In this document: in pieces, positions 28,095 through 43,771 of the stretch
Position numbering within the stretch: position 1 is the first letter of the stretch
Layout of the letters: each line of letters starts with the position of its first letter
NCBI RefSeq assembly: GCF_041886205.1
Contig: NZ_CP169029.1
DNA length: 64,000 nucleotides
Source of the DNA: Escherichia coli
Lineage (GTDB): Bacteria > Pseudomonadota > Gammaproteobacteria > Enterobacterales > Enterobacteriaceae
Direction: 5' to 3' (one strand)
Program-made: the position numbers and the translations under genes
Notes under the pieces: generated by a model
What the model saw: only the letters and a program-made list of their open reading frames with translations
What the model was told of the DNA's origin: nothing
Databases searched by the model: none

Positions 28095-28133
28095 CCGACT
28101 TACGGCACATTATCGCGCAAAACGAGATATTTA

Positions 28134-30572
28134 ATGGCTATCAAAAAAACCGAACTCTATTCTTCCCTGTGGGCAAGCTGCGACGAACTGCGTGGCGGGA
28201 TGGACGCCAGCCAGTACAAAGACTATGTACTGACCCTGCTGTTTATGAAGTACGTTTCCGATAAGTATAAAGGCGATCCTTACGGGATGATCGTGATACC
28301 CAAAGGAGCCAGCTTTGACGATATGGTTGCGCTGAAAAATGACAAAGAGATCGGCGATAAAATCAACAAAATCATCCACAAGCTGGCGGAAGAGAACGGC
28401 CTGAAGGGCGTCATCGACGAAGCCGACTTTAACGACGAAGATAAACTCGGCAAAGGCAAGGAAATGATTGACCGCCTGAGCAAGCTTGTCGGTATCTTTG
28501 AAGGGTTAGATCTCTCCAGCAACCGGGTCGAAGGCGACGATCTGCTGGGCGATGCCTATGAATATCTGATGCGTCACTTCGCAACCGAATCCGGCAAGAG
28601 TAAAGGACAGTTTTACACTCCGGCGGAGGTGTCACGTATTCTGGCAAAGGTGATTGGTATTACTCCCGATACGCCGCGAGATGCAACGGTTTATGACCCA
28701 ACCTGTGGCTCTGGTTCGCTGCTGTTGAAAGTGAATGATGAAGCCCGGCGCGGACTGTCGATTTTCGGCCAAGAGATGGATAACGCTACCAGTGCGCTGG
28801 CGCGGATGAACATGATTCTGCATAACAATGCCACCGCGAAAATCTGGCAGGGCAATACGCTGAGTGATCCGCAGTGGAAAGAGGCGAACGGCAAACTGAA
28901 AGCCTTCGATTTTGCCGTGGCGAACCCGCCTTTTTCCAATAAAAACTGGACCAACGGGCTGACGCCGAAAAAAGATCCGTTTGAACGCTTCGGCTGGGGT
29001 ATTCCGCCGGAAAAAAACGGCGATTATGCTTTTTTGTTGCATATCATTAAAAGCCTGAAAAGTACCGGCAAAGGCGCGGTGATCCTGCCCCACGGCGTAC
29101 TGTTTCGCGGTAACGCCGAAGCGAATATCCGTGAAAACCTAATCAAGCAGGGCTATATCAAAGGCGTTATTGGTTTGCCAGCCAACCTGTTTTACGGCAC
29201 CGGCATCCCGGCGTGCATCATTGTGATTGATAAAGAGCACGCCCACAGCCGCAAAGGCATTTTTATGATCGACGCCAGTCGGGGCTTTATCAAAGATGGC
29301 AACAAGAACCGCCTGCGTAGCCAAGATATTCACCGTATTGTGGACGTGTTCAACCATCAGCGAACGGTGCCAGGCTACAGCCGGATGGTGCCCTCCAGCG
29401 AGATCGCCGGGAATGATTACAACCTGAATATTCCTCGTTATATCGAGAGTGGAGAGCCGGAAGATTTGCACGATCTGACCGCGCACTTACAGGGCGGTAT
29501 TCCAGTGCGCGATGTAGATGCTTTGAAGGATTACTGGCGGGTATTCCCTGCCCTGCGTAATGTGCTGTTTGCTGACGACCACCCCGGTTACTGCCGGGCG
29601 CAAGTGGACGCGCAGCAGGTGAAACCGACCATTCTGGCTCATCAGGAGTTTAAGGATTTTGCCACCCGCAGCCTGCTACCGTTTAAGTCGTGGGTAAAAG
29701 AGGCAGGTCTGGAAGAGATCCGCAAAGGAGATAAACCCAAAGCGCTAATCCACGATATCAGCGAAATGCTATTGGCGCAGTACGCCAACAGTGAGTTGCT
29801 GAACAAATACAGCGTGTACCAGATCCTGATGGATTACTGGGCTGATGTCATGCAGGACGATGTGTATGTGATTATGCAGGATGGCTGGAAAGCCGCCGCG
29901 CAAATCCGCGAGCTTCAGCCGGTGAAAGGCAAAGATGGCAAAAACATCTGGAAAGAAACGCACGATTTCGAGTTTACCAAACGGCGCTACAAGGCCGATG
30001 TGCTGCCCCGTTCGCTGGTGGAAATTCGCTGTTTCCCGGAACTGCTGGATGCGCTGAACCGCGCGCAGGAGCGCAGTGAAGAAGCCAGTCGTCAGCTAGT
30101 GGAATTCATCGAGGAGCAGGCAGGGGAAGAGGATCTGCTGGCTGAGGTGAAAAACGATAAAGATAAGGTGACGCAAAAGCTGGTGAATGCCCGTCTGGCA
30201 CAGTTGAAGCCCCCCCCTGCCGACCCGGATGAGCTGGCAGTGCTGAACCGCTGTCTGGCGCTGATTAAGGCCGAGGCCAGTGCGAAAAAAGCGCTGAAAG
30301 CCGCACAGGAAGCGTTGGATCGAGCGGTATTTAAACATTATCCCACGCTGGATGAAGCAGCGATTAAAACGCTGGTAGTGCAGGATAAGTGGCTGGCAAC
30401 GTTGCAGGCAGGGATCAAAGCGGAGATAGAGCGTATTACCCAGCAACTGGCGTCGCGCGTAAAGGAGCTGGAAGAGCGTTATGCTGAACCGTTGCCAGCA
30501 CTTGAAGCCGCCGTTGAGGCGTTGAGCGAGAAAGTGGCCGGGCATTTGCGGGCGATGGGGCTGGAGTGGTGA
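28134..30572 (+). CDS. hsdM: Type I restriction-modification system methyltransferase subunit M with long C-terminal extension
   Basis: 812 aa; HsdM N-terminal domain (MAIKKTELYSSLWASCDELRGGMD), AdoMet motif VYDPTCGSGSLL, catalytic NPPF (FDFAVANPPFSNKNW); about 300-aa Ala/Glu/Lys-rich helical tail. Confidence 0.9.
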   Translation: MAIKKTELYSSLWASCDELRGGMDASQYKDYVLTLLFMKYVSDKYKGDPYGMIVIPKGASFDDMVALKNDKEIGDKINKIIHKLAEENGLKGVIDEADFNDEDKLGKGKEMIDRLSKLVGIFEGLDLSSNRVEGDDLLGDAYEYLMRHFATESGKSKGQFYTPAEVSRILAKVIGITPDTPRDATVYDPTCGSGSLLLKVNDEARRGLSIFGQEMDNATSALARMNMILHNNATAKIWQGNTLSDPQWKEANGKLKAFDFAVANPPFSNKNWTNGLTPKKDPFERFGWGIPPEKNGDYAFLLHIIKSLKSTGKGAVILPHGVLFRGNAEANIRENLIKQGYIKGVIGLPANLFYGTGIPACIIVIDKEHAHSRKGIFMIDASRGFIKDGNKNRLRSQDIHRIVDVFNHQRTVPGYSRMVPSSEIAGNDYNLNIPRYIESGEPEDLHDLTAHLQGGIPVRDVDALKDYWRVFPALRNVLFADDHPGYCRAQVDAQQVKPTILAHQEFKDFATRSLLPFKSWVKEAGLEEIRKGDKPKALIHDISEMLLAQYANSELLNKYSVYQILMDYWADVMQDDVYVIMQDGWKAAAQIRELQPVKGKDGKNIWKETHDFEFTKRRYKADVLPRSLVEIRCFPELLDALNRAQERSEEASRQLVEFIEEQAGEEDLLAEVKNDKDKVTQKLVNARLAQLKPPPADPDELAVLNRCLALIKAEASAKKALKAAQEALDRAVFKHYPTLDEAAIKTLVVQDKWLATLQAGIKAEIERITQQLASRVKELEERYAEPLPALEAAVEALSEKVAGHLRAMGLEW

Positions 30573-31921
30573 TGGTGGATTTAATGGTGAATGAGCAACG
30601 GTCGGGTACGGCGGGGAAAGATGTGCCTGCGGGGTATAAGCTGACTGAGGTGGGGGTGATTCCTGAGGATTGGGTAGTAATCTCTATTGATGACTGTACA
30701 ACCAAAGTTGGTAGTGGAAAAACACCAACTGGTGGAGCATCTGTTTATATTGATAGCGGACGCCCTTTTGTCCGTAGCCAAAATGTTGATTGGGGAAGAT
30801 TAGATCTCGCCGATGTCGTACATATTACAGATGAAACCCATAACACATTCTCTGGTTCTGAAATTCAGCAAGATGATGTTTTACTCAACATAACGGGAGC
30901 ATCTATCGGCCGATGCGCTAAAGCTGATTTTAGGGTTATAGGTGGTAATGTTAACCAACATGTTTGCATCATCAGAACAGAGGCAAAAAAACTCTCCCCA
31001 TCCTTACTGGTTGAATTAATCAATTCAAATTATGGACAAAACCAGATTGATAGTTATCAAGCCGGAGGAAACAGAGAAGGACTGAATTTTTCTCAAGTTA
31101 AAAATCTTAAGTTTGCTATTACACCAAACTCCTTTGAACAAACGGAAATTGTCAGAACATTAAATGATATTAATGCATTTACTCTCGCTCTGGAAAACTT
31201 AATTGCTAAAAAACAGGCCATAAAAGCCGCTGCTATGCAACAACTACTTACCGGTAAAACCCGTTTGCCACAGTTTGCGTTGCGCAAAGATGGCTCTGCT
31301 AAGGGATATAAAAAGAGCGAGTTGGGGGAGATTCCTGAAGATTGGAATTGTATTAATCTTGGTGAGCTAGGTAATTGCATTATTGGGTTAACTTACAAAC
31401 CTGAAGATACATCTGATTATGGTACATTGGTATTACGCTCATCCAACATTCAAAATAATCACTTAGCTTATGATGATAACGTCTTCGTCAGCATAGAACC
31501 ACCTGAGCGCACAATTGTGAAAGAAGGTGATATCTTGGTATGTGTAAGAAATGGCAGTCGCCAACTTATTGGCAAATGCGCATTAATTGACAAAAATGCG
31601 CAGGGCTCAGCATTCGGTGCATTTATGTCAGTATTCCGAACTGATATATATGGATTTACATTTCACCAATTCCAGTCTGATATTATTCAAAAGCAAATCG
31701 CTGAAGTTATGGGTGCCACTATCAATCAGATAACTAACAAAGATATGTTGGGCTTTAAAATCCCATTACCTGAAAATACAGAAGAACAAGCCGCCATCGC
31801 CGCCATCCTCTCCGATATGGACAAGGAAATCCAGATCCTGCAACAGCGTCTGGACAAAACCCGCCAGCTTAAGCAAGGGATGATGCAGGAACTGTTAACC
31901 GGGAAAATCCGCTTAATATAG
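30566..31921 (+). CDS. hsdS: Type I restriction-modification specificity subunit S
   Basis: 451 aa; two target-recognition domains each followed by conserved helical repeats (QAIKAAAMQQLLTGKTRLP and QAAIAAILSDMDKEIQILQQRLDKTRQLKQGMMQELLTGKIRL); start overlaps hsdM stop. Confidence 0.9.
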   Translation: MVMVDLMVNEQRSGTAGKDVPAGYKLTEVGVIPEDWVVISIDDCTTKVGSGKTPTGGASVYIDSGRPFVRSQNVDWGRLDLADVVHITDETHNTFSGSEIQQDDVLLNITGASIGRCAKADFRVIGGNVNQHVCIIRTEAKKLSPSLLVELINSNYGQNQIDSYQAGGNREGLNFSQVKNLKFAITPNSFEQTEIVRTLNDINAFTLALENLIAKKQAIKAAAMQQLLTGKTRLPQFALRKDGSAKGYKKSELGEIPEDWNCINLGELGNCIIGLTYKPEDTSDYGTLVLRSSNIQNNHLAYDDNVFVSIEPPERTIVKEGDILVCVRNGSRQLIGKCALIDKNAQGSAFGAFMSVFRTDIYGFTFHQFQSDIIQKQIAEVMGATINQITNKDMLGFKIPLPENTEEQAAIAAILSDMDKEIQILQQRLDKTRQLKQGMMQELLTGKIRLI

Positions 31922-31933
31922 AAGGGAAAGCAC

Positions 31934-32590
31934 ATGGCTTATGATTACAGCGCCAGCCTCAACCCGCAAAAAGCTCTGATCTGGCGTATCGTCCATCGGG
32001 ACAATATCCCGTGGATTCTGGATAACGGGCTGCACTGCGGCAACAGTCTGGTGCAGGCGGAAAACTGGATCAATATCGGCAACCCGGAGCTGATCGGCAA
32101 GCGTGCCGGGCATCCGGTACCTGTCGGAACGGGCGGGACACTGCATGACTATGTGCCGTTTTATTTTACCCCCTTCTCGCCAATGCTGATGAACATCCAC
32201 AGCGGGCGCGGCGGCATTAAGCAACGCCCCAATGAGGAGATCGTTATTCTGGTCAGCAACTTGCGAAACGTGGCAGCACACGACGTACCCTTCGTGTTTA
32301 CCGACAGCCATGCTTACTATAACTGGACCAACTACTACACCAGTCTGGATAGTCTGGACCAGATCGACTGGCCCATTTTGCAGGCACGGGACTTTCGCCG
32401 CGATCCAGACGATCCGGCTAAATTTGAACGCTATCAGGCAGAGGCGCTAATCTGGCAACACTGCCCGATCTCTCTGCTGGATGGGATAATTTGTTACAGC
32501 GAAGAGGTCAGGTTACAATTAGAACAATGGCTGTTTCAGCGTAATCTAACAATGTCCGTTCACACACGGGCTGGATGGTACTTCTCATGA
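31934..32590 (+). CDS. darT: DarT-like ssDNA ADP-ribosyltransferase toxin (DUF4433)
   Basis: 218 aa; motifs [30 protein letters not shown] and QAEALIW align by eye with DarT family; RBS GAAGGGA upstream; 16-bp overlap with darG. Confidence 0.85.
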
Positions 32591-33654
32591 TCACATATAC
32601 ACAAGGCAATTTACTGGACGCACCGGTGGAAGCTCTGGTGAATACGGTTAATACCGTCGGTGTCATGGGGAAAGGCATCGCGTTGATGTTTAAAGAGCGC
32701 TTCCCCGAAAATATGAAAGTCTATGCCCTCGCCTGCAAACAAAAGCAGGTGATCACCGGCAAAATGTTCATTACCGAAACCGGGGAACTGATGGGACCGC
32801 GCTGGATTGTTAATTTTCCGACCAAACAGCACTGGCGCGCTGATTCCCGCATGGAGTGGATTGAAGATGGCTTGCAGGACTTACGCCGCTTTTTGATTGA
32901 AGAGAACGTGCAGTCCATCGCCATTCCACCACTGGGCGCAGGCAACGGTGGTTTGAACTGGCCGGACGTTCGGGCGCAGATTGAATCTGCCCTTGGCGAC
33001 CTTCAGGACGTTGATATCCTGATTTACCAACCGACTGAAAAATACCAGAACGTTGCCAAAAGCACTGGCGTAAAAAAGCTCACTCCCGCCAGAGCCGCCA
33101 TCGCTGAACTGGTGCGTCGCTACTGGGTATTGGGGATGGAGTGCAGCCTACTGGAAATCCAGAAACTGGCCTGGCTGTTACAACGCGCCATTGAGCAGCA
33201 TCAACAGGACGATATCCTCAAACTGCGGTTTGAAGCTCACTATTATGGCCCCTATGCGCCCAATCTGAACCATCTGCTTAATGCGCTGGACGGCACCTAT
33301 CTTAAAGCCGAGAAACGCATCCCGGACAGCCAACCGCTGGATGTGATCTGGTTTAACGATCAGAAAAAAGAACACGTTAATGCGTATCTGAACAACGAAG
33401 CCAGAGAGTGGCTACCTGCGCTGGAGCAGGTCAGCCAGTTAATTGACGGCTTTGAATCGCCGTTTGGTCTGGAGTTGCTGGCAACCGTAGACTGGTTGCT
33501 GAGCCGTGGCGAATGTCAACCAACGCTGGATTCCGTTAAGGAAGGGCTGCACCAGTGGCCTGCGGGCGAACGCTGGGCCAGCCGTAAGTTGAGGCTGTTT
33601 GATAATAATAATCTGCAATTTGCCATTAACCGCGTAATGGAGTTCCATTGCTGA
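32575..33654 (+). CDS. darG: DarG-like macrodomain antitoxin (ADP-ribosylglycohydrolase)
   Basis: 359 aa; N-terminal macrodomain ([36 protein letters not shown]) plus C-terminal domain; translationally coupled to darT. Confidence 0.85.
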
Positions 33655-33672
33655 GGGTTTAAGGAGCGCCTT

Positions 33673-36600
33673 TTGAGTACCGTGGGCCAGCGCGAACGCG
33701 CCACACAGCAGCGTCTGATTCAGTTTTTTGTTGAAGATTTAGGTTACCGCCATCTGAGTCACCGCACCGGGTACACCGGGAACAGCAACATCGACACTAA
33801 TATACTGAGCGCGTGGCTAAAACGGCGCGGCGTTAATGATACGTTGATCACCCGGGCGTTGCGGCAACTGGATTCCGCCGCCGCTCTGGGCGAAGGCAAA
33901 AAACTCTATTACGCCAATAAAGAGGTCTATCGCCTACTGCGTTACGGCGTGAAAGACAAAGAAGGCGCAGGCGAGCAGAACCAAACCGTGTGGCTGATTG
34001 ACTGGGCCAACCCACAAGCCAATGATTTCGCCATCGCCGATGAGGTGACGGTCAAAGGCGAGTACTGCAAGCGCCCGGATCTGGTGCTGTACGTTAACGG
34101 CATTGCGCTGGGCGTGATTGAACTTAAGCGTTCGTCAGTGCACGTCAGCGAAGGCATCCGGCAGAATCTCGATAATCAAAAGAAAACCTTTATCCGCGAT
34201 TTCTTCACCACTATGCAGTTAGTGATGGCGGGCAACGATACGCAGGGCCTGCGCTACGGCACCATCGAAACCCCGGAAAAATACTATCTGGAGTGGAAAG
34301 AAGATAATCCAGGCGACTATACACATAAACTCGACTTTCATTTAAGTCGTCTGTGTAGCAAATCCAGGCTGTTGGATATCGTCCATAATTACATTGCCTT
34401 TGATGTCGGGGTGAAAAAACTCTGCCGCCATAATCAGTTCTTCGGCGTCGAGGCGGCTAAACAACATATTGCCCGTCGTGAAGGCGGTATTATCTGGCAC
34501 ACACAGGGATCGGGTAAAAGCCTGACGATGGTCTGGCTGGCGAAGTGGATCCGTGAAAATGTGCCAAACTCCCGCGTGTTGATTGTGACTGACCGCACCG
34601 AACTGGATGAACAGATCGAAAGCGTGTTTATGGGCGTGAATGAAGATATTTATCGCACCTCCAGCGGCAACGATCTTATCGCAACGCTCAATCATCCTAA
34701 CCCGTGGCTCATTTGCTCGCTGGTGCATAAATTTGGTCGTCGCAGCGAAGCTGAAGACAATGCAGCTACCGACGCCTTTATCACCGAATTACAGCACTCC
34801 CTGACGAAAACATTCCGCGCCAAAGGCGATCTGTTTGTTTTTGTGGACGAGTGCCACCGCACACAATCCGGCAAGCTGCATAACGCCATGACTGCCATTC
34901 TGCCGGACGCCCTGTTTATCGGTTTTACCGGCACACCGCTGATGAAGAAAGATAAGAAGAAGTCGGTTGAGGTGTTCGGCCCTTATATCCATACCTATAA
35001 ATTTGATGAAGCGGTGGCCGACGGTGTGGTGCTGGATCTGCGCTACGAGGCACGCGATATTGACCAGTATCTGACATCAGAGAAAAAGGTCGATGACTGG
35101 TTTGAAGCCAAGACTCGCGGTTTGTCGAATTTAGCTAGGACCCAGCTTAAGCAAAAGTGGGGATCAATGCAGAAGCTGCTCTCCAGCAAGTCGCGGCTGG
35201 AGCAGATCGTTAACGACATTTTGCTGGATATGGATACCCGTCCACGCCTGATGGACGGGCGCGGCAACGCCATGCTGGTATGCAGCAGTATCTATCAAGC
35301 CTGCAAGGTTTACGAGATGTTCAGCCAGACCGAGCTGGCAGGAAAAGTAGCGATTGTGACCAGCTATCGCCCCGATGCCGCCAGCATCAAAGGCGAAGAA
35401 ACGGGCGAAGGGTTAACGGAGAAACTCTCTAAACACGCCACCTATCGTAAAATGTTGGCTGACTATTTTGAACAAAGTGAAGAGAAGGCCGCCGCACGCA
35501 TTACCGAGTTCGAGCGGGAAGTGAAACAGCGTTTTATTGAAGAGCCGGGGCAAATGCGCCTGCTTATCGTGGTGGATAAGCTGCTGACTGGCTTTGACGC
35601 GCCGTCCGCCACCTATCTCTACATTGATAAAACCATGACCGACCATACGCTGTTTCAGGCGATTTGTCGGGTGAACCGGCTGGACGGTGAGGATAAAGAG
35701 TATGGCTATATTATCGATTATAAAGATCTGTTCCGTTCGCTGGATAAAGCGATTACCGATTACACCACGGGCGCGTTTGATGATTACGATCGGGACGATG
35801 TGGCCGGGTTGCTGAAAGACAGGCTAGAGCAGGCGCAACTGGATCTCGACAGCGCGCTGGAGATGGTTCGCAGCTTATGTGAACCCGTCAAAACCCCGCG
35901 CAGCCTGCAGGACTATCAGCACTATTTTTGCGGTGAATCAGGAGAGAATCAGACTTCGTTAAACGAAAAAGAGGCGCTGCGCCTGACATTTTACCAGTGC
36001 GTCGCCCGTCTGCTACGCGCTTATGCCAACATCGCCAATGAAATGCCGGAAGCAGGCTACACTGCCGAAGAGGTAGAGAGCATTCGCGCCGAAGTCGCTG
36101 AATTCGAAAAACTGCGCTATGAGATTAAGCTGACCAGCGGCGATCTTCTGGATATGAAGCGCTTTGAACCCGCTATGCGTCATTTACTGGATATGTATGT
36201 TCGCGCCGATGATAGCGAAGTGCTGATGGATTTTGAAGAGTTAAGTCTGATTGAACTGATTGTCGAGAAAGGCTTGGCGGCGACCGTCGCCCTGCCGGAT
36301 GATATCCGTAATAATCAGGATGCGATGGCGGAAACCATCGAAAACAACGTGCGCAAAACCATCGTGGATGAAAACCCGGTTAACCCAAAATACTATGGAC
36401 GCATGTCGCAACTGCTGGATGAACTGATTACCCTTCGCCGACAAAATGCGCTCAATTATCAGCAGTATCTGGAACGTATCCGCGATTTGTGTAAACAGGT
36501 CATCCGCCCGGAGCAAACCGCCGGAGCGTGCTACCCTGCCACCATGGATACACAAGCAAAGCGCGCCTTCTATGATAACTTCGGCCACGACGAGGTACTG

Positions 36601-36768
36601 GCGACCCGCATAGATACGACGATTCGCTATACCAAAAGGGCAGAGTGGATTGGCGATCGTTTTAAAGAACGGGAAATTGCCAACGCATTACGTGAAGAGA
36701 CCGCCAGCTATAATATTGATATTGATGAGGTGATAGCGCTTGCCCGTCAGCAGAAGGAATATCACTGA
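33673..36768 (+). CDS. hsdR: Type I restriction enzyme endonuclease/translocase subunit R
   Basis: 1031 aa; helicase motifs GSGKSLTM (Walker A) and FVFVDECHR (DEAH-like), N-terminal nuclease region; probable TTG start at 33673 preceded by AAGGAG. Confidence 0.9.
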   Translation: MSTVGQRERATQQRLIQFFVEDLGYRHLSHRTGYTGNSNIDTNILSAWLKRRGVNDTLITRALRQLDSAAALGEGKKLYYANKEVYRLLRYGVKDKEGAGEQNQTVWLIDWANPQANDFAIADEVTVKGEYCKRPDLVLYVNGIALGVIELKRSSVHVSEGIRQNLDNQKKTFIRDFFTTMQLVMAGNDTQGLRYGTIETPEKYYLEWKEDNPGDYTHKLDFHLSRLCSKSRLLDIVHNYIAFDVGVKKLCRHNQFFGVEAAKQHIARREGGIIWHTQGSGKSLTMVWLAKWIRENVPNSRVLIVTDRTELDEQIESVFMGVNEDIYRTSSGNDLIATLNHPNPWLICSLVHKFGRRSEAEDNAATDAFITELQHSLTKTFRAKGDLFVFVDECHRTQSGKLHNAMTAILPDALFIGFTGTPLMKKDKKKSVEVFGPYIHTYKFDEAVADGVVLDLRYEARDIDQYLTSEKKVDDWFEAKTRGLSNLARTQLKQKWGSMQKLLSSKSRLEQIVNDILLDMDTRPRLMDGRGNAMLVCSSIYQACKVYEMFSQTELAGKVAIVTSYRPDAASIKGEETGEGLTEKLSKHATYRKMLADYFEQSEEKAAARITEFEREVKQRFIEEPGQMRLLIVVDKLLTGFDAPSATYLYIDKTMTDHTLFQAICRVNRLDGEDKEYGYIIDYKDLFRSLDKAITDYTTGAFDDYDRDDVAGLLKDRLEQAQLDLDSALEMVRSLCEPVKTPRSLQDYQHYFCGESGENQTSLNEKEALRLTFYQCVARLLRAYANIANEMPEAGYTAEEVESIRAEVAEFEKLRYEIKLTSGDLLDMKRFEPAMRHLLDMYVRADDSEVLMDFEELSLIELIVEKGLAATVALPDDIRNNQDAMAETIENNVRKTIVDENPVNPKYYGRMSQLLDELITLRRQNALNYQQYLERIRDLCKQVIRPEQTAGACYPATMDTQAKRAFYDNFGHDEVLATRIDTTIRYTKRAEWIGDRFKEREIANALREETASYNIDIDEVIALARQQKEYH

Positions 36769-37484
36769 TGCCAATCATGCAAATAGGCTCGTTACACTTG
36801 CTGGTCAACCGTAAGGCGATTAAGAATCTGCATATCAGCGTGCTGCCGCCTGATGGCAAAGTCCGCGTTTCAGCGCCGGAACATATGACGGAGACGGCGA
36901 TTCGTATGGCGGTTGCTTCACGCTTTCGCTGGATCAGAAAACAGCAGCAGGATTTCGCCAGACAGCCTCGTCAATCAGAGAGGGAAATGGTCAGCGGAGA
37001 GTGCCACTATCTTTGGGGCCGAAGATATCGCCTACTTGTGATTGAGCGTCACGGGCGTCACGAAGTAAAAGTTGCGGGAAATAATAAGCTCCAGCTTTAT
37101 GTTCAACCGGGAACCCGTGATGAAAATAAGGCATTGGCGTTAAGTGAATTTTATCGACATGAACTAAAACAGCAGGTGGCTAAGCTTCTACCTGAATGGC
37201 AGGACCGAATCGGTGTTCCCCTAACATTCTGGGGCATCAAAAAGATGAAAACCTTTTGGGGCACCTGTAACACTACAACAAAACGAATCTGGCTCAATCT
37301 GGAGCTAATTAAGAAGCCGCCGGAGTGTCTGGAGTATATTCTGGTGCATGAACTGGTTCATCTTCTGGAACGTCACCATAATGCTCGCTTCCGGTTGCAT
37401 ATGGATCGGTTTATTCCTGACTGGCGTGAGCGTCGGGATTTGTTAAATAATATGCCGTTAGCGTTTGAGGCATGGGAGTATTGA
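36768..37484 (+). CDS. M48/DUF45-family zinc metallohydrolase (YgjP/WLM-like)
   Basis: 238 aa; HExxH motif in ILVHELVHLLERHHNARF; start overlaps hsdR stop, indicating co-transcription. Confidence 0.7.
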   Translation: MPIMQIGSLHLLVNRKAIKNLHISVLPPDGKVRVSAPEHMTETAIRMAVASRFRWIRKQQQDFARQPRQSEREMVSGECHYLWGRRYRLLVIERHGRHEVKVAGNNKLQLYVQPGTRDENKALALSEFYRHELKQQVAKLLPEWQDRIGVPLTFWGIKKMKTFWGTCNTTTKRIWLNLELIKKPPECLEYILVHELVHLLERHHNARFRLHMDRFIPDWRERRDLLNNMPLAFEAWEY

Positions 37485-38023
37485 TTGAGCCTGTAACTGT
37501 TTTTTGTCCATAAATTAACCTTCATTTGATGCTGGATTGAACATATCAAAATCAGACAATTACACAAATCTATGTACAGGCTCAACTCCTGCCATGGAAC
37601 GTAGTACTCACCAATAAGTAAGCATCAATACGGCGCTCCGTTAACGCTTACTAGCATGGTTATCTCCTTAAAAAATTGAGGCGACAACTATGCTGACGCA
37701 GGGGGGTATTGGGTGATCTCCTTCCATGAAAATACGCAGCTTGATTGCATTAAATTTATTTAATTTGCACTAATTTTGTTTAAGTTACATTACCACACGT
37801 GGGATATTGGAATACAAGCAACGCGAGGAATCAGTAAATATACCAATAATTGTATCACCCCTTTAATATTCATTAAGGTTTCAGGCCCTCCGGCACGATT
37901 CACCTGGCGAATCAATTCACGAGTCGCCCCAGAGTCACCGCCAATAAACATGCGATTCAACTCCCGATTCGATTCTCACTAATCTATTGTTTTATATAAA
38001 GATAGTCAGTACTGACTCTGTGA

Positions 38024-38063
38024 CGACTCGCCGATGACTTGCCATAGAGTCATCGGCGAGTCG
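38024..38063. repeat. Perfect 16-bp inverted repeat (hairpin) with 8-nt loop
   Basis: CGACTCGCCGATGACT-TGCCATAG-AGTCATCGGCGAGTCG; no flanking T/A run, so not a classical terminator. Confidence 0.45.
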
Positions 38064-38273
38064 GATCGGCATAATAAAAATTATCATAACGTAATTCTGA
38101 AATTATAACTTTATGATTTTAAATACCTATCAGCAAAAACTTGGTTTTGCATGGGGTGTGGAGATTTTGAGGTAAGAAGCAGGCTATCGTAAAATAGCCT
38201 GCTGGGATGGATTCAGTAATCACCGAATAAATTGCGGAGCAAAAAAACCGCCAATCAAGAGATGGGTTAGCAA

Positions 38274-38609
38274 TCAATTTTCGTATTTAAATTCAATATT
38301 AATCTTTAAAGCCTCTACATCTACTGTCACTTCACAGCCATGCCAGAATGGTTTTTCCTGAGATTTAAAGTTATCTAGAAAATAATTTCTTAATTCCACA
38401 AGAAAATCAAATAAATCACCGTTTGCTTGTGCCCCTGCCGAAAACCAATCAGTATTGCCAGTATCTGCATTTATATAGTCAAATTCACATTTACAATGAT
38501 CATTTTCAGGAGACAGTTCTGCTCTCATGATCACTTTGGATGCATTTTCAGGCGCAATGGATAGCAATACTGAACCTATATCATTATAAATCTCTTGATC
38601 AGTCCTCAC
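38274..38609 (-). CDS. Putative CdiI-type immunity protein of orphan module
   Basis: 111-aa ORF whose ATG directly follows the stop of the VENN-containing toxin fragment; no family recognised, assignment by gene context. Confidence 0.5.
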   Translation of the reverse strand: MRTDQEIYNDIGSVLLSIAPENASKVIMRAELSPENDHCKCEFDYINADTGNTDWFSAGAQANGDLFDFLVELRNYFLDNFKSQEKPFWHGCEVTVDVEALKINIEFKYEN

Positions 38610-39038
38610 CTACTTACCTCCGGGTACATTTTTAAACGTTTCAGATACCGGCCTTATGCTGTTACCTGTATAAGATGGCTGGATATTAACTTTAATGCTC
38701 ACTATCCCTGACTCATCCATCTGCTGCATCAACAGAACGGATAAGTCATTCTTCATTGCCCACGGAATATCTTCACCCAATGCCCTGTCTATGGCTTCGT
38801 GAACCAACAAACTGTTAGCAGGGATGTCACCGTACTTCTCTTTGCAGGCTGTCGGGCTCGAAGCACATGTTGCGATCAGTTCATTACGCTGCTTGAGACT
38901 CAGATCTTCCATTTCTTTCACGATCTGACCACAGTCACCACGGGCCTCACAACCTTTCGCCCTCGCCGCAAAGTTATCGATCTGATCAGCACTCAGGTAG
39001 TTATTCTCAACAACAATCCCAACTAAAAGGGTTGGGAT
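38610..39038 (-). CDS. Orphan CdiA C-terminal toxin fragment (VENN motif, no N-terminal region)
   Basis: Reverse-strand frame opens after TAA-TGA stops and reads IPTLLVGIVVENNYLSADQIDNFAARAKGCEARGDCGQIVKEMEDLSLKQ...; VENN encoded at 39000-39011; only an internal ATG. Confidence 0.6.
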   Translation of the reverse strand: MPTLLVGIVVENNYLSADQIDNFAARAKGCEARGDCGQIVKEMEDLSLKQRNELIATCASSPTACKEKYGDIPANSLLVHEAIDRALGEDIPWAMKNDLSVLLMQQMDESGIVSIKVNIQPSYTGNSIRPVSETFKNVPGGK

Positions 39039-39039
39039 T
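39013..39039. repeat. Hairpin at junction of the two toxin/immunity modules
   Basis: AATCCCAAC-TAAAAGG-GTTGGGATT between the stop of the 147-aa gene and the VENN fragment. Confidence 0.4.
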
Positions 39040-39047
39040 CATTACCC

Positions 39048-39491
39048 TTATGTATAAAGACTATCGTCGTAGGGTGCTTCAGTCAGAATTTTTTGAATTT
39101 CATGTCGTGCTTTTAGCTCCCATGAAAGATTCATATTTGCCATTAACTCAATAAATTTTGGGAACGCGATACGTCGTCCATCTCTGCCTTTAACCCTGTG
39201 TTCTAATTCATATTGGAATGCTGTCTTATAAGCGAGTTCTGACATGATCCAATAAAGTAGCTCATCTAGTGACCTAGTAACCTTCCGCGAGAATTCATAA
39301 CCTCTTTCTGAATGAATGTAATTATATACATTGTTTTCAAATGTAACATATGGTGTGCCATCACCAATTGGAGCGGAACAAAGATTAACTGAATGTCTTG
39401 GGAGACCAGCTTGCAAGGTCAACGCGTCAATTTTCCTTTGTATTTCATTGATATTCAGCAACATATTAGCGAACCTCACGAATATATCCAT
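39048..39491 (-). CDS. Putative immunity protein of upstream orphan toxin module
   Basis: 147-aa ORF whose start overlaps the 3' end of an upstream start-less toxin-like frame by about 26 nt. Confidence 0.45.
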   Translation of the reverse strand: MDIFVRFANMLLNINEIQRKIDALTLQAGLPRHSVNLCSAPIGDGTPYVTFENNVYNYIHSERGYEFSRKVTRSLDELLYWIMSELAYKTAFQYELEHRVKGRDGRRIAFPKFIELMANMNLSWELKARHEIQKILTEAPYDDSLYT

Positions 39492-39747
39492 TCTTCAATA
39501 GCCATTCCACATTCACTCGATCTTGCATATTAGGTAATATCTGAATCCCCCCTCCAGGCTCACCAAAAGCGGGGGCAATCTTTCCTTGTATAGCAGGCAA
39601 GGGTTTTATTACCTCATATTCATAGTATTTATATGAACGCATCCCGTTTGCAAGGCATCCATTGTTTTGACATGACGGGTAGGTTGCAGCTTTATATCCG
39701 GCTTTATTGCAGCCGTAACGCTGCGAGCCCCTATGTAATTCGCCGAC
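39466..39747 (-). pseudogene. Truncated toxin C-terminal domain remnant (no start codon)
   Basis: Hand translation of the reverse strand gives an open frame of about 93 codons (VGELHRGSQRYGCNKAGYKAATYPSCQNNGCLANGMRSYKYYEYEVIKPLPAIQGKIAPAFGEPGGGIQILPNMQDRVNVEWLLKNGYIREVR) bounded upstream by TGA and adjacent to the IS110-family element. Confidence 0.35.
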
Positions 39748-39904
39748 TCACCCCTTATTTTCACGGCGGACTTCAAGCCCAAAATACTGTTCAGGTTTAG
39801 TGAGTCACGGTCTTACCTGTCTTTGTCATCACTCTGGCCGCCATAGCAACCTTTCAGCATTCACCCTTTTGTTAAGAGTTCATTGTTTAATGGTATCAGC
39901 GATT

Positions 39905-40056
39905 AATATGGTCTGATACTGACGTGGTTCCTGTCATACTTACGGTCATGGGCGGTTATCGCCCATACTGTTCGTGCCAGCTTGTTTGCCATGGCGACGA
40001 TTGCCACACTGGCTGGACGACGTTTTTTCAGTTCGGTTATCCACGGGCCAGGCTCT
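39905..40056 (-). pseudogene. IS110-family transposase, 3' part (separated from 5' part by IS66 insertion)
   Basis: Reverse translation reads EPGPWITELKKRRPASVAIVAMANKLARTVWAITAHD..., in frame with the 289-aa fragment at 42760-43629 once IS66 and one copy of the 8-bp duplication are removed. Confidence 0.6.
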
Positions 40057-40094
40057 TTAGCTACGTAAGCGACTCGTCAGAACCGTATTGATAT

Positions 40095-41666
40095 TTACTG
40101 AGAGCTCAGATCAACTTTCCAGGGCAACAGATCGCGTACCCGGTTTGCCGGCCAGTCCTGGATATGTTCAATGACGTAACGCAGCCACTTTTCTGGCTCC
40201 ACATTGTTCAGACGGCATGTGCCGATCAGCGAGTACAACACCGCCGCATGTTCACCACCGCTGTCGGAACCCGCGAACATCCAGTTTTTCCGGCCTACGG
40301 CCACTCCCCGTAAGGCGTTCTCTGCGATGTTGTTGTCGATTTCCACCCAGCCATTACTGCAGTACACGTTCAGTGCATCCCACTGTTTCAGCAGGTATGC
40401 GAACGCTTTTGCCGTATCTGAGTGACGCGACAGTGTTTTCATCTGTTGCTGTATCCAGTCATACAGTGACTGCATCAGTGGCGCGGCTCTGGCTTTTCTT
40501 GCCGCCAGACGCTGTTCTGCTGAACAGCCCCGGACCTCTGCCTCGATGGCATACAGTTCACCGATACGCTGCAGGGCTTCCGTGGTGATGTAGGTGGACG
40601 CTCTTGCATGCACATCGTGGATTTTTCTCCGGGCATGAGCCATACACGCGGCTTCCGTTATTCTGCCGGATTCGTATAACGCCCGGTAACCACCGTAAGC
40701 ATCGGCCTGAAGCACACCGCTGTAACCGGCCAGGTGATTTTGTGGATGGATACCTTTCCGGTCCGGACTGTACGCGAACCAGACCGCCGGGGGCATCTGT
40801 GAACCGGCGTTACGGTCATCACGGACGTAGACCCACAGCCGGGCTGTCCGGGTTTTACCGCTGCCCGGCTCCTGGACCGGGACGGGGATATCATCAGCAT
40901 GGACTTTACCGGGCATCAGCACATACTGGCGCAGGACGTCATACAGCGGCTCCAGCAGTTCAGCAACAGCACCTGTCCAGCGCCCCAGTGTGGCACGGCT
41001 CAGCTCCACTCCCTGACGACGGTATATTTCTGACTGGCGGTATAACGGCAGATGGTCTGCATATTTCCCGGTGACAACATGGGCCAGAAGCCCCGCTCCG
41101 GCATAACTGCGTGCAATGGGTTTTGAAGGTACTGGTGCCTGCACGATATGGTCGCACCGGCAACAGGCCTGTTTCGGACGTTGTGTTTCGATAACCTTAA
41201 AGGCGCTGCTGATAAGCTCCAGTTGCTCTGACACATCACATCCCAGAGAACTGAGTTCACCACCACAGGCAGGACAGCATTCCTCTTCCGGCCGGATAAC
41301 CCGGGTTTCACGGGGAAGTGAGGCCGGTAACGGTTTACGGGCTGAAGACTGGCGCAGGGCGGATGGCAGTACCGGGTCATATTGCTCACCCAGCGTTTCC
41401 GCCATTTCTTCCTGAAGTGCGCTGATTCGCTCCTGTGCTTCCTGTATCTGCCGTTCGGTTTTTGCACGAAGTTTTTCTGAGCTTTTACCGAACTGCATAC
41501 GTTGCAGTTTCGCAACCAGCGCCTTCAGCCGGTTGATTTCGGAAGCATAAGCCGCCACCCGCTGTGAGAGCAGGCGGTTGTATTCAGCCATCTGGCGGAT
41601 GGTGTCCTGTTGCGTCTGCAACAGTGCCCGCAGGCGGGCGTTCTCATGAGCAAGTGAGGTGTCCAT
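40095..41666 (-). CDS. IS66-family transposase (TnpC/orf3)
   Basis: 523 aa with N-terminal coiled-coil/leucine zipper, Cys-rich zinc-binding segment and DDE region. Confidence 0.9.
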
Positions 41667-41685
41667 ATCCTCACTTTACAACGGG

Positions 41686-42033
41686 TTATATGCGGATTCC
41701 AGCGCGTTCCGTTCGTTTCGGGTGCTTCCAGTTGATACCTTCAAGAAGCATGGATAACTGAGCCGGAGTAAGGTGCACCTTGCCGTCACGGGTGACTGGC
41801 CAGACGAAGCGGCCCCGCTCCAGGCGTTTGGTGAAGAGGCACAGTCCGTCACTGTCAGCCCACAACACTTTTATCTGGTCACCCCGGCGTCCGCGGAAGA
41901 TGAACAGGTGTCCGGAGAACGGGTCATCCTTCAGGACGTTCTGAACTTTTGATGCCAGGCCGTTAAAGCCATTTCGCATATCGGTGATACCTGCAACCAG
42001 CCAGATACGCGAACCTGCAGGGAGAGATATCAT
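41686..42033 (-). CDS. IS66 Orf2 (TnpB-like accessory protein)
   Basis: 115 aa MISLPAGSRIWLVAGITDMRNGFNGLASKVQNVLKDDPFSGHLFIFRGRRGD... Confidence 0.9.
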   Translation of the reverse strand: MISLPAGSRIWLVAGITDMRNGFNGLASKVQNVLKDDPFSGHLFIFRGRRGDQIKVLWADSDGLCLFTKRLERGRFVWPVTRDGKVHLTPAQLSMLLEGINWKHPKRTERAGIRI

Positions 42034-42710
42034 CAGTGGCTGCTCCCTTTTATTTCGCGGATAAGTGTCTGTAATAACGCCGGCGTCAGTTTACCTTTAA
42101 GCCTGAGAGTTCCGGCCGGCAGAACCAGCTCACAACACAGACTGTCGGACGGTGTATTTATCTGCTCTGGTTCCTGTGCGGGGGCCGGGATTTTATTATC
42201 CGGCTCCGGCGTTAACGTCACGGGAAGCAGTGCCGGCATATTTTTTCCGGAAGGCAGCAGGCCACCTTTCCGGTATTGATGGCGCCAGTTGAAGAGCAGG
42301 TTATCGTTGATTCCGTTTTCCCGGGCGATCTGCGCCACACAGGCTCCGGGCTGCAGTGACTGCTCCACTAAGGCGATTTTAAACTCATAAGGGAAGTTGG
42401 GCCGCCGGGGACGTTTTTTTACCACGGGGGCTTCGGATATAACGGTGCTTTCAGGACGTACGACTGGTACCGTGGAAAATTGTCCGTAAAGGCAGGCATC
42501 AAGTTCCTGCTCCGACATGCCTGCGGGCAAAGGCCACGAAAGGCCAGCTCTCCGAAAGCGCACGAACATACTACAAACTGTTGATTTTGGTACACCCAGG
42601 CGACGCCCGGCCACAACCCGGGGTAAATGTTCTTCAAAGTGAAGACGTAAAGCTTCAGTGATCCAGGTCCGGTGTTTCATACGATAGTGTCCATTAAAAA
42701 TGATGGACAT
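42033..42710 (-). CDS. IS66 Orf1 (HTH accessory protein)
   Basis: 225-aa ORF with helix-turn-helix region; first gene of the IS66 element. Confidence 0.8.
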   Translation of the reverse strand: MSIIFNGHYRMKHRTWITEALRLHFEEHLPRVVAGRRLGVPKSTVCSMFVRFRRAGLSWPLPAGMSEQELDACLYGQFSTVPVVRPESTVISEAPVVKKRPRRPNFPYEFKIALVEQSLQPGACVAQIARENGINDNLLFNWRHQYRKGGLLPSGKNMPALLPVTLTPEPDNKIPAPAQEPEQINTPSDSLCCELVLPAGTLRLKGKLTPALLQTLIREIKGSSH

Positions 42711-42759
42711 TATTTTTGTAGAGCCGGAGGAAACAGACCAGACGGTTTAAATGAGCCGG

Positions 42760-43629
42760 TTACTTAGCTACTAATGCCACCGCTCTTGCACCGTGGATAA
42801 ATAATGTCCTGAGATAAGTGTCACCACGTTTGCTTATCCCCAGCAGACGTACTTTCCCTCCGGAGCCAGTTTGTTTTGGAACCAGACCAACATATGCGGC
42901 GAACTCTCGCCCCGATTTAAACGCTGATGCTTCCCCCATGGTGGCCACCGCTGCCGTCGCAATAAGTGGTCCAACGCCAGGAATATCCAGCAACCGCTTA
43001 CAGGTTTCATTCTGCCTCGCCACGCTGGTAAGCTGTTTTTCAATATCCTCTATCAGTGAGTCCAGCTCATTCAGTCGGTTGTACTGGTTTTCCAGAACCA
43101 TAATGAGATACGGTGGCAGTCTCTCTTTCATCCGTTCCAGTGCTTCGGGGAACTCCCGCTCCATCGCTGCCCGGCCTTTGTGGATGGTTTCACCAAACTC
43201 CAGTAACGTCCCGTGCAGGGCATTAATTTGTGCGGTCCGGAACTTCACCAGTTGCATGCGGGTACGGTGCAGAACCAGTACCGACTGCTGTTCTTCTGTT
43301 TTTACGGCGATTTCTTTACCCGGCTGCTGAACCGCCATCCAGATAGCCCGGGCATCCATCACATCATTCTTATTGCCCATGACGAATGCCTTAACGAAGC
43401 GGGCCTGCAACAACCGGACTTTATGACCAAGTTTTGTCAGTTCCCGTGCCCAGTGCTGAGAACCTCCACAGGCCTCCATACCAATCAGGCATGGCTCACG
43501 GTTGCCGAAGAACATCAGAAAATCCTGTCTACGCAACTGTTTATCAACCACTTCACCTGTGTGCTCATTGATGAAGTGAATCTGAATGACATGTTTTGCG
43601 ATATCAACGCCAACCGGTGTATATTTCAT
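42760..43629 (-). pseudogene. IS110-family transposase, 5' part (disrupted by IS66)
   Basis: 289-aa ORF with DEDD-type N-terminus (MKYTPVGVDIAKHVIQIHF...) and DIPGVGPLIATAAVATMGE motif; reading frame terminates inside the IS66 junction. Confidence 0.8.
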
Positions 43630-43771
43630 TTGTGGAGTCTCCAGTCTGAGGGAGCTTTATGCATCCCGTATTGGGCACTATGATGCCGGAAATCTGCGAG
43701 GCTCCACACCTGCCAGTTTCACCCTTTTAACCATCATACTGCTCCGTGTTTAATTGTGTGGGATGCGTTCA

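Follow-up and report, generated by a model that had tools for sequence, protein, structure and literature searches.

The toxin/immunity module at positions 39048 to 39747 of the window (the whole 64,000-nucleotide stretch of Escherichia coli DNA that was analysed) is very probably, at a probability of roughly 0.88, the decayed 3' end of an E. coli cdi toxin/immunity array: a TNT-type toxin stub cut by the insertion sequence ISEc11 lies beside an intact Imm63 immunity gene, the ancestor was a cdiA-CT with a TNT tip, and the junction between toxin and insertion sequence most likely arose in two steps. As such, it is an ordinary decayed toxin/immunity module, and the public annotation (PGAP, strain ZYB62) already labels it so. 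Orphan or degraded cdiA-CT/cdiI modules, IS-rich cdi loci and stand-alone immunity genes (reviewed in PMC9086364), the experimentally characterised ISEc11 with its seekRNA (PMC11187229) and the pairing of TNT with Imm63, predicted in 2012, were all known beforehand; the sole lead beyond this known picture is the hairpin at the junction with the next module. Three adjoining features carry the argument:

39466..39630, minus strand: TNT-type (NAD+ glycohydrolase) CdiA C-terminal remnant, the last 54 codons and the stop, by homology to intact cdiA-CT
39048..39464, minus strand: intact Imm63-family immunity gene, 138 aa from Met10, by Pfam and the start annotation of homologues
39631..40064, minus strand: 3' part of ISEc11 (IS1111 group, IS110 family), by 99.8% identity to an intact ISEc11 copy

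The initial annotation had read a minus-strand frame that has no start codon and is 93 codons long (39469-39747, between the stops at 39748-39750 and 39466-39468, with the end ...GEPGGGIQILPNMQDRVNVEWLLKNGYIREVR) as a toxin C-terminus followed by its cognate immunity gene. This pairing is borne out: the last 54 residues of the frame, KYYEYEV...REVR, are identical at 53 of 54 positions to the C-terminus of the full-length CdiA of strain STEC17-190, the Pfam TNT family (PF14021) aligns to them over model positions 39-88 of 88 (52.7 bits, E 6e-14), and the adjoining gene belongs to Imm63 (PF15599). Both checks proposed at that stage were productive, in that a domain search with the 93-aa fragment and the 147-aa protein encoded next to it returned Pfam TNT and Imm63, and a comparison with related genomes lacking the insertion sequence uncovered the intact parent cdiA, in STEC17-190 and IGC_RcoliRes_1.1, where the same sequence forms the 3' end of the full-length gene. 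At the nucleotide level, the remnant is 95.8% identical to intact cdiA-CT/Imm63 loci and the match stops at 39630; with 21 other E. coli genomes, megablast gives a match that begins at 39055 and breaks off at exactly this position. The corresponding PGAP label in ZYB62 is 'TNT domain-containing protein', incomplete and missing its N-terminus.

How much of the toxin is left? The parent C-terminal region extends 314 aa past VENN and consists of DUF6862 followed by the TNT domain at residues 224-313 (Pfam). The 54-codon remnant has retained the GGGIQ segment, but the DRYG (DRxxG) segment and all that lies upstream of it, VENN included, are gone; some 37-38 N-terminal positions of the TNT model and the LDRYG segment of the parent are absent, with IS DNA in their place. 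Relatives of the parent domain in the PDB are fungal NADases and Mycobacterium tuberculosis TNT; the domain is homologous to the latter (the C-terminal domain of CpnT, PDB 4QLP) and to fungal AfNADase with E values from 9e-6 to 4e-17, and shares with both the DRxG...GS[FY] and GxGxQ segments. Unlike the mycobacterial toxin, which reaches its target by way of an outer-membrane channel protein, the E. coli toxin would be delivered by type V CdiA, and it is a putative NADase. The antitoxin of M. tuberculosis TNT is IFT, the place of which is taken here by Imm63. Both the NADase activity of the parent CdiA-CT and its neutralisation by Imm63 are predicted from family membership, and NAD+ hydrolysis is not expected from the 54-aa stub. 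Zhang et al. 2012 (PMC3482391) listed Imm63 among the immunity families given for Ntox40 and named DRxxG as the Ntox40 motif; this motif is present in the intact toxin tip, as the LDRYG segment, and Ntox40 and Pfam TNT appear to be one family.

The frame itself is open and start-less, as had been described, but only its last 54 codons are toxin. Because homology to cdiA-CT stops at 39630 and homology to ISEc11 begins at 39631, IS DNA that is in frame by accident makes up 39 of the 93 codons. These first 39 codons (39631-39747) contain all three cysteines and most of the glycines, so that the Cys/Gly-rich segment formerly ascribed to the toxin is in fact the right end of ISEc11. A reading of the whole Cys/Gly-rich frame as a toxin remnant, with its 5' limit at the stop at 39748 and the insertion sequence ending about 150 bp further on, is therefore hardly tenable. 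It draws on a Pfam alignment of the 93-aa translation to TNT positions 9-88 (57.2 bits) and on an 'RYG' in the IS-derived part at about the spacing of DRYG in the real toxin, yet the C-terminal 54 residues alone account for 52.7 of these bits, the N-terminal 39 alone give no TNT match, and 39631-39747 is about 99% identical to ISEc11 copies residing in unrelated genes and has no similarity to intact cdiA at that position. Splitting the sequence in this manner rules out that TNT homology reaches into the IS part; the extension is an alignment artefact that adds only 4.5 bits over a chance 'RYG'. The former placement of the IS end some 150 bp beyond the frame does not hold either, since the transposase stop at 39903 had been taken for the end of the element, whereas its real end, at 39631, lies inside the frame. 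Past the transposase stop there follow about 270 bp of non-coding IS DNA comprising the seekRNA region and a subterminal inverted repeat. The parts of the element and of its surroundings are these:

39633-39645, minus strand: ISEc11 subterminal inverted repeat ATGAACGCATCCC, present at both IS ends
~39700-39904, minus strand: ISEc11 non-coding seekRNA region
39757..39790, minus strand: seekRNA target-matching segments ACAGUAUUUU (39790-39781, pairing with the top strand of the target) and GUGAAAAU (39764-39757, pairing with the bottom strand), by pattern and fold
39903-40064, minus strand: C-terminal codons of the ISEc11 transposase
40065..42763, minus strand: ISCro1-like IS66-family element (tnpA, tnpB, transposase), by junctions against uninterrupted ISEc11, PGAP and ORFs
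42764..43779, minus strand: 5' part of ISEc11, with the N-terminal 289 transposase codons, the left end AAATGTA and a subterminal inverted repeat, by 99.9% identity to intact ISEc11 and a left-end junction common to three other copies
43780..44670, minus strand: IS66-family tnpA and an N-terminal tnpB fragment ending ...GTGA, the left flank of ISEc11, by PGAP and the same flank at the ISEc11 copy in plasmid p15648-3

An intact ISEc11 copy of 1442 bp aligns to 39631-40068 and 42764-43779, and the element has the subterminal inverted repeats, the DEDD transposase and the 3' non-coding seekRNA segments of its class; in ZYB62, PGAP labels its two parts as IS110-family transposase fragments. These properties agree with the ISEc11 of Siddiquee et al. 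2024 (PMC11187229), who described an element of 1443 bp with subterminal inverted repeats, a 3' non-coding region holding two target-matching segments, and the target GTGAAAATACTG, entered after GTGA, i.e. GTGA|AAATACTG. The order within the seekRNA, with the top-strand match 5' of the bottom-strand match, also agrees with their account (PMC11187229), as does the canonical left flank in IS66 tnpB. A small stem-loop lies between ACAGUAUUUU and GUGAAAAU, just upstream of the stop that opens the 93-codon frame. A search of 38000-45000 against Rfam 15 at E<=1 matched no bridge or seekRNA family. Unlike the published element (PMC11187229), the present copy has as its right flank a one-mismatch mimic in the toxin gene that is not contiguous with the left flank, and it is inactivated by the insertion of ISCro1 into its transposase gene; an 8-bp target duplication TTAGCTAC flanks ISCro1 at 40057-40064 and 42764-42771. 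The elements are nested, with ISCro1 inside ISEc11 and ISEc11 inside the tnpB gene of IS66.

Truncation by an IS110-family element had been suspected from the outset and is confirmed in a more direct form than had been assumed: at 39630/39631, the toxin codons and the right end of ISEc11 meet with nothing in between. The boundary is fixed from the IS side too: for ISEc11 copies residing in an IS66 tnpB gene, a phage-type integrase gene and the rne-rluC spacer, the similarity to the window ends at 39631 except for short target-like bases, and past this point the three differ from one another. On the toxin side, the breakpoint falls on AAATACTATG, which matches the right half of the ISEc11 target at 9 of 10 positions; intact cdiA reads GCTGAAAAATACTATG at this point, and the left half of the target is matched there at 5 of 8 positions. 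Sites within one mismatch of AAATACTGTG occur only twice in the 12.6-kb intact cdiA locus (25 kb on both strands), and one of the two is the breakpoint. It follows that the IS machinery, and no random deletion, set the position of the junction.

Could the stub nonetheless be a natural orphan, i.e. a cdiA-CT fragment displaced by a newer module, alongside which an insertion sequence merely happened to land? Orphan CTs normally lack a start codon (reviewed in PMC9086364), and in strain M8 this TNT/Imm63 pair occurs as an orphan truncated at its 5' end. However, orphans typically begin at the pre-toxin motif, VENN or similar (PMC9086364), whereas here 260 residues past VENN are gone; the M8 orphan has about 318 codons, close to the length of the post-VENN CT (314 aa); and the break in the window matches the ISEc11 right end and the target mimic to the base. 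Taken together, these points make an origin by displacement highly improbable. The M8 locus bears on the ancestor in another way: because it holds the same pair as a truncated orphan, the ancestor of the window locus need not have been a full-length cdiA. What it would have possessed is a cdiA-CT whose tip is a NAD+ glycohydrolase of the TNT type (314 aa past VENN), an Imm63 gene, and a further orphan VENN module.

The left flank of ISEc11 is the canonical target (...ATGGTGA| in IS66 tnpB) and the right flank is AAATACTA in cdiA-CT, two different loci, and a 500-nt chimeric query for the reciprocal junction, joining the ISEc11 left end to the cdiA sequence upstream, found none among 5426 complete genomes, ZYB62 included. 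Since the two flanks do not belong together and these 5426 genomes contain no reciprocal junction, a second step is required. Neither an inversion within ZYB62 nor a surviving intermediate finds support, no genome covering both halves of the chimeric query, and an intermediate with cdiA on both sides of ISEc11 was not found in the 5426 genomes. It is probable that ISEc11 initially joined cdiA-CT at a pseudo-target, the right half of which mimics the target read by the seekRNA, and that a second event then removed the VENN region, the N-terminal part of the TNT domain including DRxxG, and whatever lay upstream. For the second event, the most likely mechanism is homologous recombination of one ISEc11 copy, situated in cdiA-CT, with another in IS66 tnpB, which would have deleted the DNA between them; ISCro1 split the ISEc11 transposase gene later.

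A clean insertion at the cdiA site would itself have been inefficient, because the left half of the target is matched at 5 of 8 positions only and altered flanks block ISEc11 transposition (Siddiquee et al. 2024; PMC11187229). Perhaps, then, no second copy was involved, and an ISEc11 resident in IS66 tnpB used its seekRNA and transposase to join its right end to the half-site in cdiA-CT on the same replicon, deleting the intervening DNA in one step. This course of events would fit the target match in cdiA, which is good on the right (9/10) but poor on the left (5/8), as well as the facts that the left flank is the canonical target and that no full insertion intermediate was found in the 5426 genomes. 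Nevertheless, we consider it possible but unlikely: according to Siddiquee et al. (PMC11187229), ISEc11 moves through a circular intermediate for which both flanks are required, and donor flanks that had rejoined once the element was excised were not detected; their paper describes no one-ended ISEc11 rearrangement. The sequence alone would look the same after either route. By either route, the junction illustrates how, in nature, an RNA-guided element of the IS1111 type has landed on a half-site with one mismatch in a toxin gene, or has recombined with it.

The joining of the two sequences left behind a short open frame of 58 codons (39466-39642), whose ATG (39642-39640) comes from the ISEc11 subterminal repeat and which reads four IS codons into the 54-codon stub. 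This fusion ORF is probably meaningless. That it should be translated into a small functional protein, for instance a decoy for Imm63 or a regulator, is suggested by the in-frame ATG created by the IS end, but there is no promoter consensus nearby and no Shine-Dalgarno motif was seen upstream of the ATG, the fusion is confined to this lineage among the 5426 genomes, and more than 40% of the domain is absent, all of which renders such a function very unlikely.

The immunity gene, by contrast with the toxin, is intact, and the present remnant would thus consist of a dead toxin stub and a complete Imm63 gene. The longest ORF runs from 39048 to 39491 (147 aa), covers the Pfam Imm63 model (PF15599) from position 1 to 82 of 82 (E 3e-29), and overlaps the 93-codon frame by 26 nt. 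The overlap noted in the initial annotation is thus real for the ORFs as listed, but the likely start is the ATG at 39464 (Met10), 1 nt past the toxin stop TAA (TAA-T-ATG) and 9 nt after GAGG, and this start probably leaves no overlap at all. At all homologous loci, annotation places the start of the immunity gene at the ATG that corresponds to 39464, which gives 136-138 aa, and the upstream ATG at 39491 corresponds to the toxin's own AAT GGA (Asn-Gly) codons in ...KNGYIREVR; because of both facts, the overlap is probably an artefact of the longest-ORF rule. The protein is identical at 129 of 138 positions to two homologues adjoining full-length TNT-type cdiA, and its frame is intact with a dN/dS of ~0.15, a figure that mostly reflects divergence older than the truncation. 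PGAP labels it 'immunity 63 family protein' in ZYB62. The pair of TNT and Imm63 was found in 22 of 5426 complete E. coli genomes, always adjacent, i.e. Imm63 adjoins a TNT-type toxin gene in every one of the 22 genomes that have it, and the same linkage was reported by Zhang et al. 2012 (PMC3482391). A promoter/terminator consensus scan of 38900-39950 returned no sigma-70 consensus promoter and one weak plus-strand terminator-like site (39583-39603). Judged by its family, the Imm63 product, if the gene is expressed, would bind and neutralise TNT-type CdiA toxins coming from neighbouring E. coli.

The intact loci resemble the window closely over the part that the two have in common. In STEC17-190 (CdiA WP_215735908.1, Imm63 WP_024209848.1) and IGC_RcoliRes_1.1, the last 54 toxin codons and the whole immunity gene are 95-96% identical at the nucleotide level to those of the window, and the stop/start junction is the same TAA-T-ATG; unlike the 54 codons present here, these loci encode a complete secretable toxin of several thousand residues. 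IGC_RcoliRes_1.1 is the closest intact counterpart with regard to layout, as its full-length cdiA is followed by Imm63, by the same hairpin and by another orphan, with the same junction into VVENN. In the window, the following orphan and the intervening hairpin comprise:

38610..39011, minus strand: orphan VENN cdiA-CT with two internal deletions, by three-piece alignment to the full-length CdiA of GN02350
38274..38609, minus strand: intact immunity gene of the VENN module, 111 aa (WP_001258403.1, the same accession as beside the full-length CdiA in GN02350)
39015..39039, minus strand: junction hairpin with a 9-bp stem (AAUCCCAAC/GUUGGGAUU) and a 7-nt loop, by fold and recurrence

Compared with the CdiA of GN02350, the VENN toxin lacks about 165 aa, corresponding to the core of a DNA/RNA non-specific endonuclease, and a further 12 aa, so both tandem modules consist of a dead toxin and a live-looking immunity gene. 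An NCBIfam scan of the four module proteins gave nothing useful.

The hairpin had been placed exactly at the junction of the two modules, a placement that stands on both fold and position: it is found past the Imm63 stop (39048-39050) and ahead of the next module's VVENN codons, into which (GUUGUUGAGAAUAAC) its 3' arm runs, and the 61-nt context that includes it folds at -16.2 kcal/mol. In IGC_RcoliRes_1.1, another orphan comes after the same Imm63 gene, and between its hairpin and that of the window one A-U pair of the stem is changed to G-C in a compensatory manner. A scan for GGATTGTTGTTGAGAATAA in one genome per species gave 16 loci, 10 of them in Enterobacterales, and the hairpin recurs at 12 other cdiI-to-orphan junctions in several genera:

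Further hairpin loci (labels of the analysis): L008 5037-5096, L011 2505-2564, L012 2494-2553, L013, L016, L017, L021, L022, L024, L025, L026, L028

The hosts belong to at least 8 genera of Enterobacterales (E. coli, Citrobacter, Pseudocitrobacter, Mangrovibacter, Trabulsiella, Tenebrionibacter, Erwinia and Edwardsiella). In every case, the element is situated 19-46 nt past the stop of a small ORF and before a start-less IVVENN... frame with a diverse tip; it measures ~35-45 nt, with a stem of 9-17 bp, and its 3' arm GGGAUUGUUGUUG leads straight into the ENN codons. The small ORFs 5' of it are immunity-like and unrelated to one another. When the scan loci are considered together with three further E. 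coli junctions, the 5' arm is found in 13 of 15 junctions, the inner 9-10 bp are nearly always paired, and covariation is seen in the apical stem, one pair of which alternates (AU:5, GC:5, GU:2); the covariation score is modestly raised, at 0.212 versus 0.177 in shuffles, 3 of 500 of which scored as high. The stem has no U-tract behind it and hence does not qualify as a canonical intrinsic terminator.

What might such an element be good for? One may tentatively suppose, with the odds rather against it, that it is a conserved cassette-boundary element of Enterobacterales CDI orphan arrays and not a local curiosity. If so, the hairpin could insulate silent orphans from transcription or terminate transcription into them; alternatively, it could provide a 3' handle for incoming toxin/immunity cassettes that recombine at VENN and displace the resident tip. 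A literature search found no description of an orphan-junction hairpin.

The wider surroundings are those of a genomic island. Positions 38160-47950 are 99.95% identical, and positions 32740-38167 100% identical, to the chromosome of E. coli ZYB62 (bovine; NZ_CP074366.1), the closest complete genome, which carries an extra copy of ISEc23 (IS66 family) at window position ~38160-38167 that is absent here, so that the window stems from a near relative of ZYB62 rather than from that strain. A 68-nt fragment resembling an IS66 end is found at 37584-37651. The setting is a tRNA-Ser island next to csg/ghrA, which also holds Ag43, CbtA/YeeU and a type I restriction-modification system with darTG; according to the ZYB62 annotation, ~28100-37500 contains an hsdM, hsdS, hsdR operon with darT-darG between hsdS and hsdR, followed by an M48 metallopeptidase gene. 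In strain M8, too, the orphan array that contains this TNT/Imm63 module has an hsdR gene next to its end. In the window, the stretch separating the M48 peptidase gene from the array holds a long near-perfect palindrome, GACTCGCCGATGACT...AGTCATCGGCGAGTC (38009-38071); its match to a miRNA, the only one of the Rfam 15 search, is spurious. Across the span of the 64-kb window in ZYB62, neither cdiB nor a full cdiA is annotated, IS elements and uhpC being found upstream instead, and no cdiBAI operon precedes the TNT/Imm63 module.

Orphan cdiA-CT/cdiI modules downstream of E. coli cdiBAI were described by Poole et al. 2011, as related in PMC9086364. Like them, the present array has start-less toxin fragments, each with an immunity gene directly after it, in tandem, with insertion sequences nearby and with the immunity genes intact. 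Unlike them, the TNT stub does not begin at or upstream of VENN but is cut 260 residues past it by the IS end, and for this reason it cannot be resurrected by recombination. A stand-alone cdiI in an orphan islet of Salmonella Typhi (Barretto and Fowler 2020, as related in PMC9086364) offers a second parallel, in that, going by that account, an immunity gene has been retained where a functional CDI toxin is lacking and presumably affords protection from competitors; the species and the immunity family are different, and in the window, in contrast to what is related of the islet, the IS junction preserves a record of how the toxin was lost.

Beyond the correct annotation of the locus, the importance of these findings is small. 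They do carry the lesson that a start-less open frame beside a genuine toxin stub can run by chance into IS DNA. For E. coli, the locus shows a CDI locus decaying to immunity-only remnants, which may still protect their host against competitors armed with TNT.
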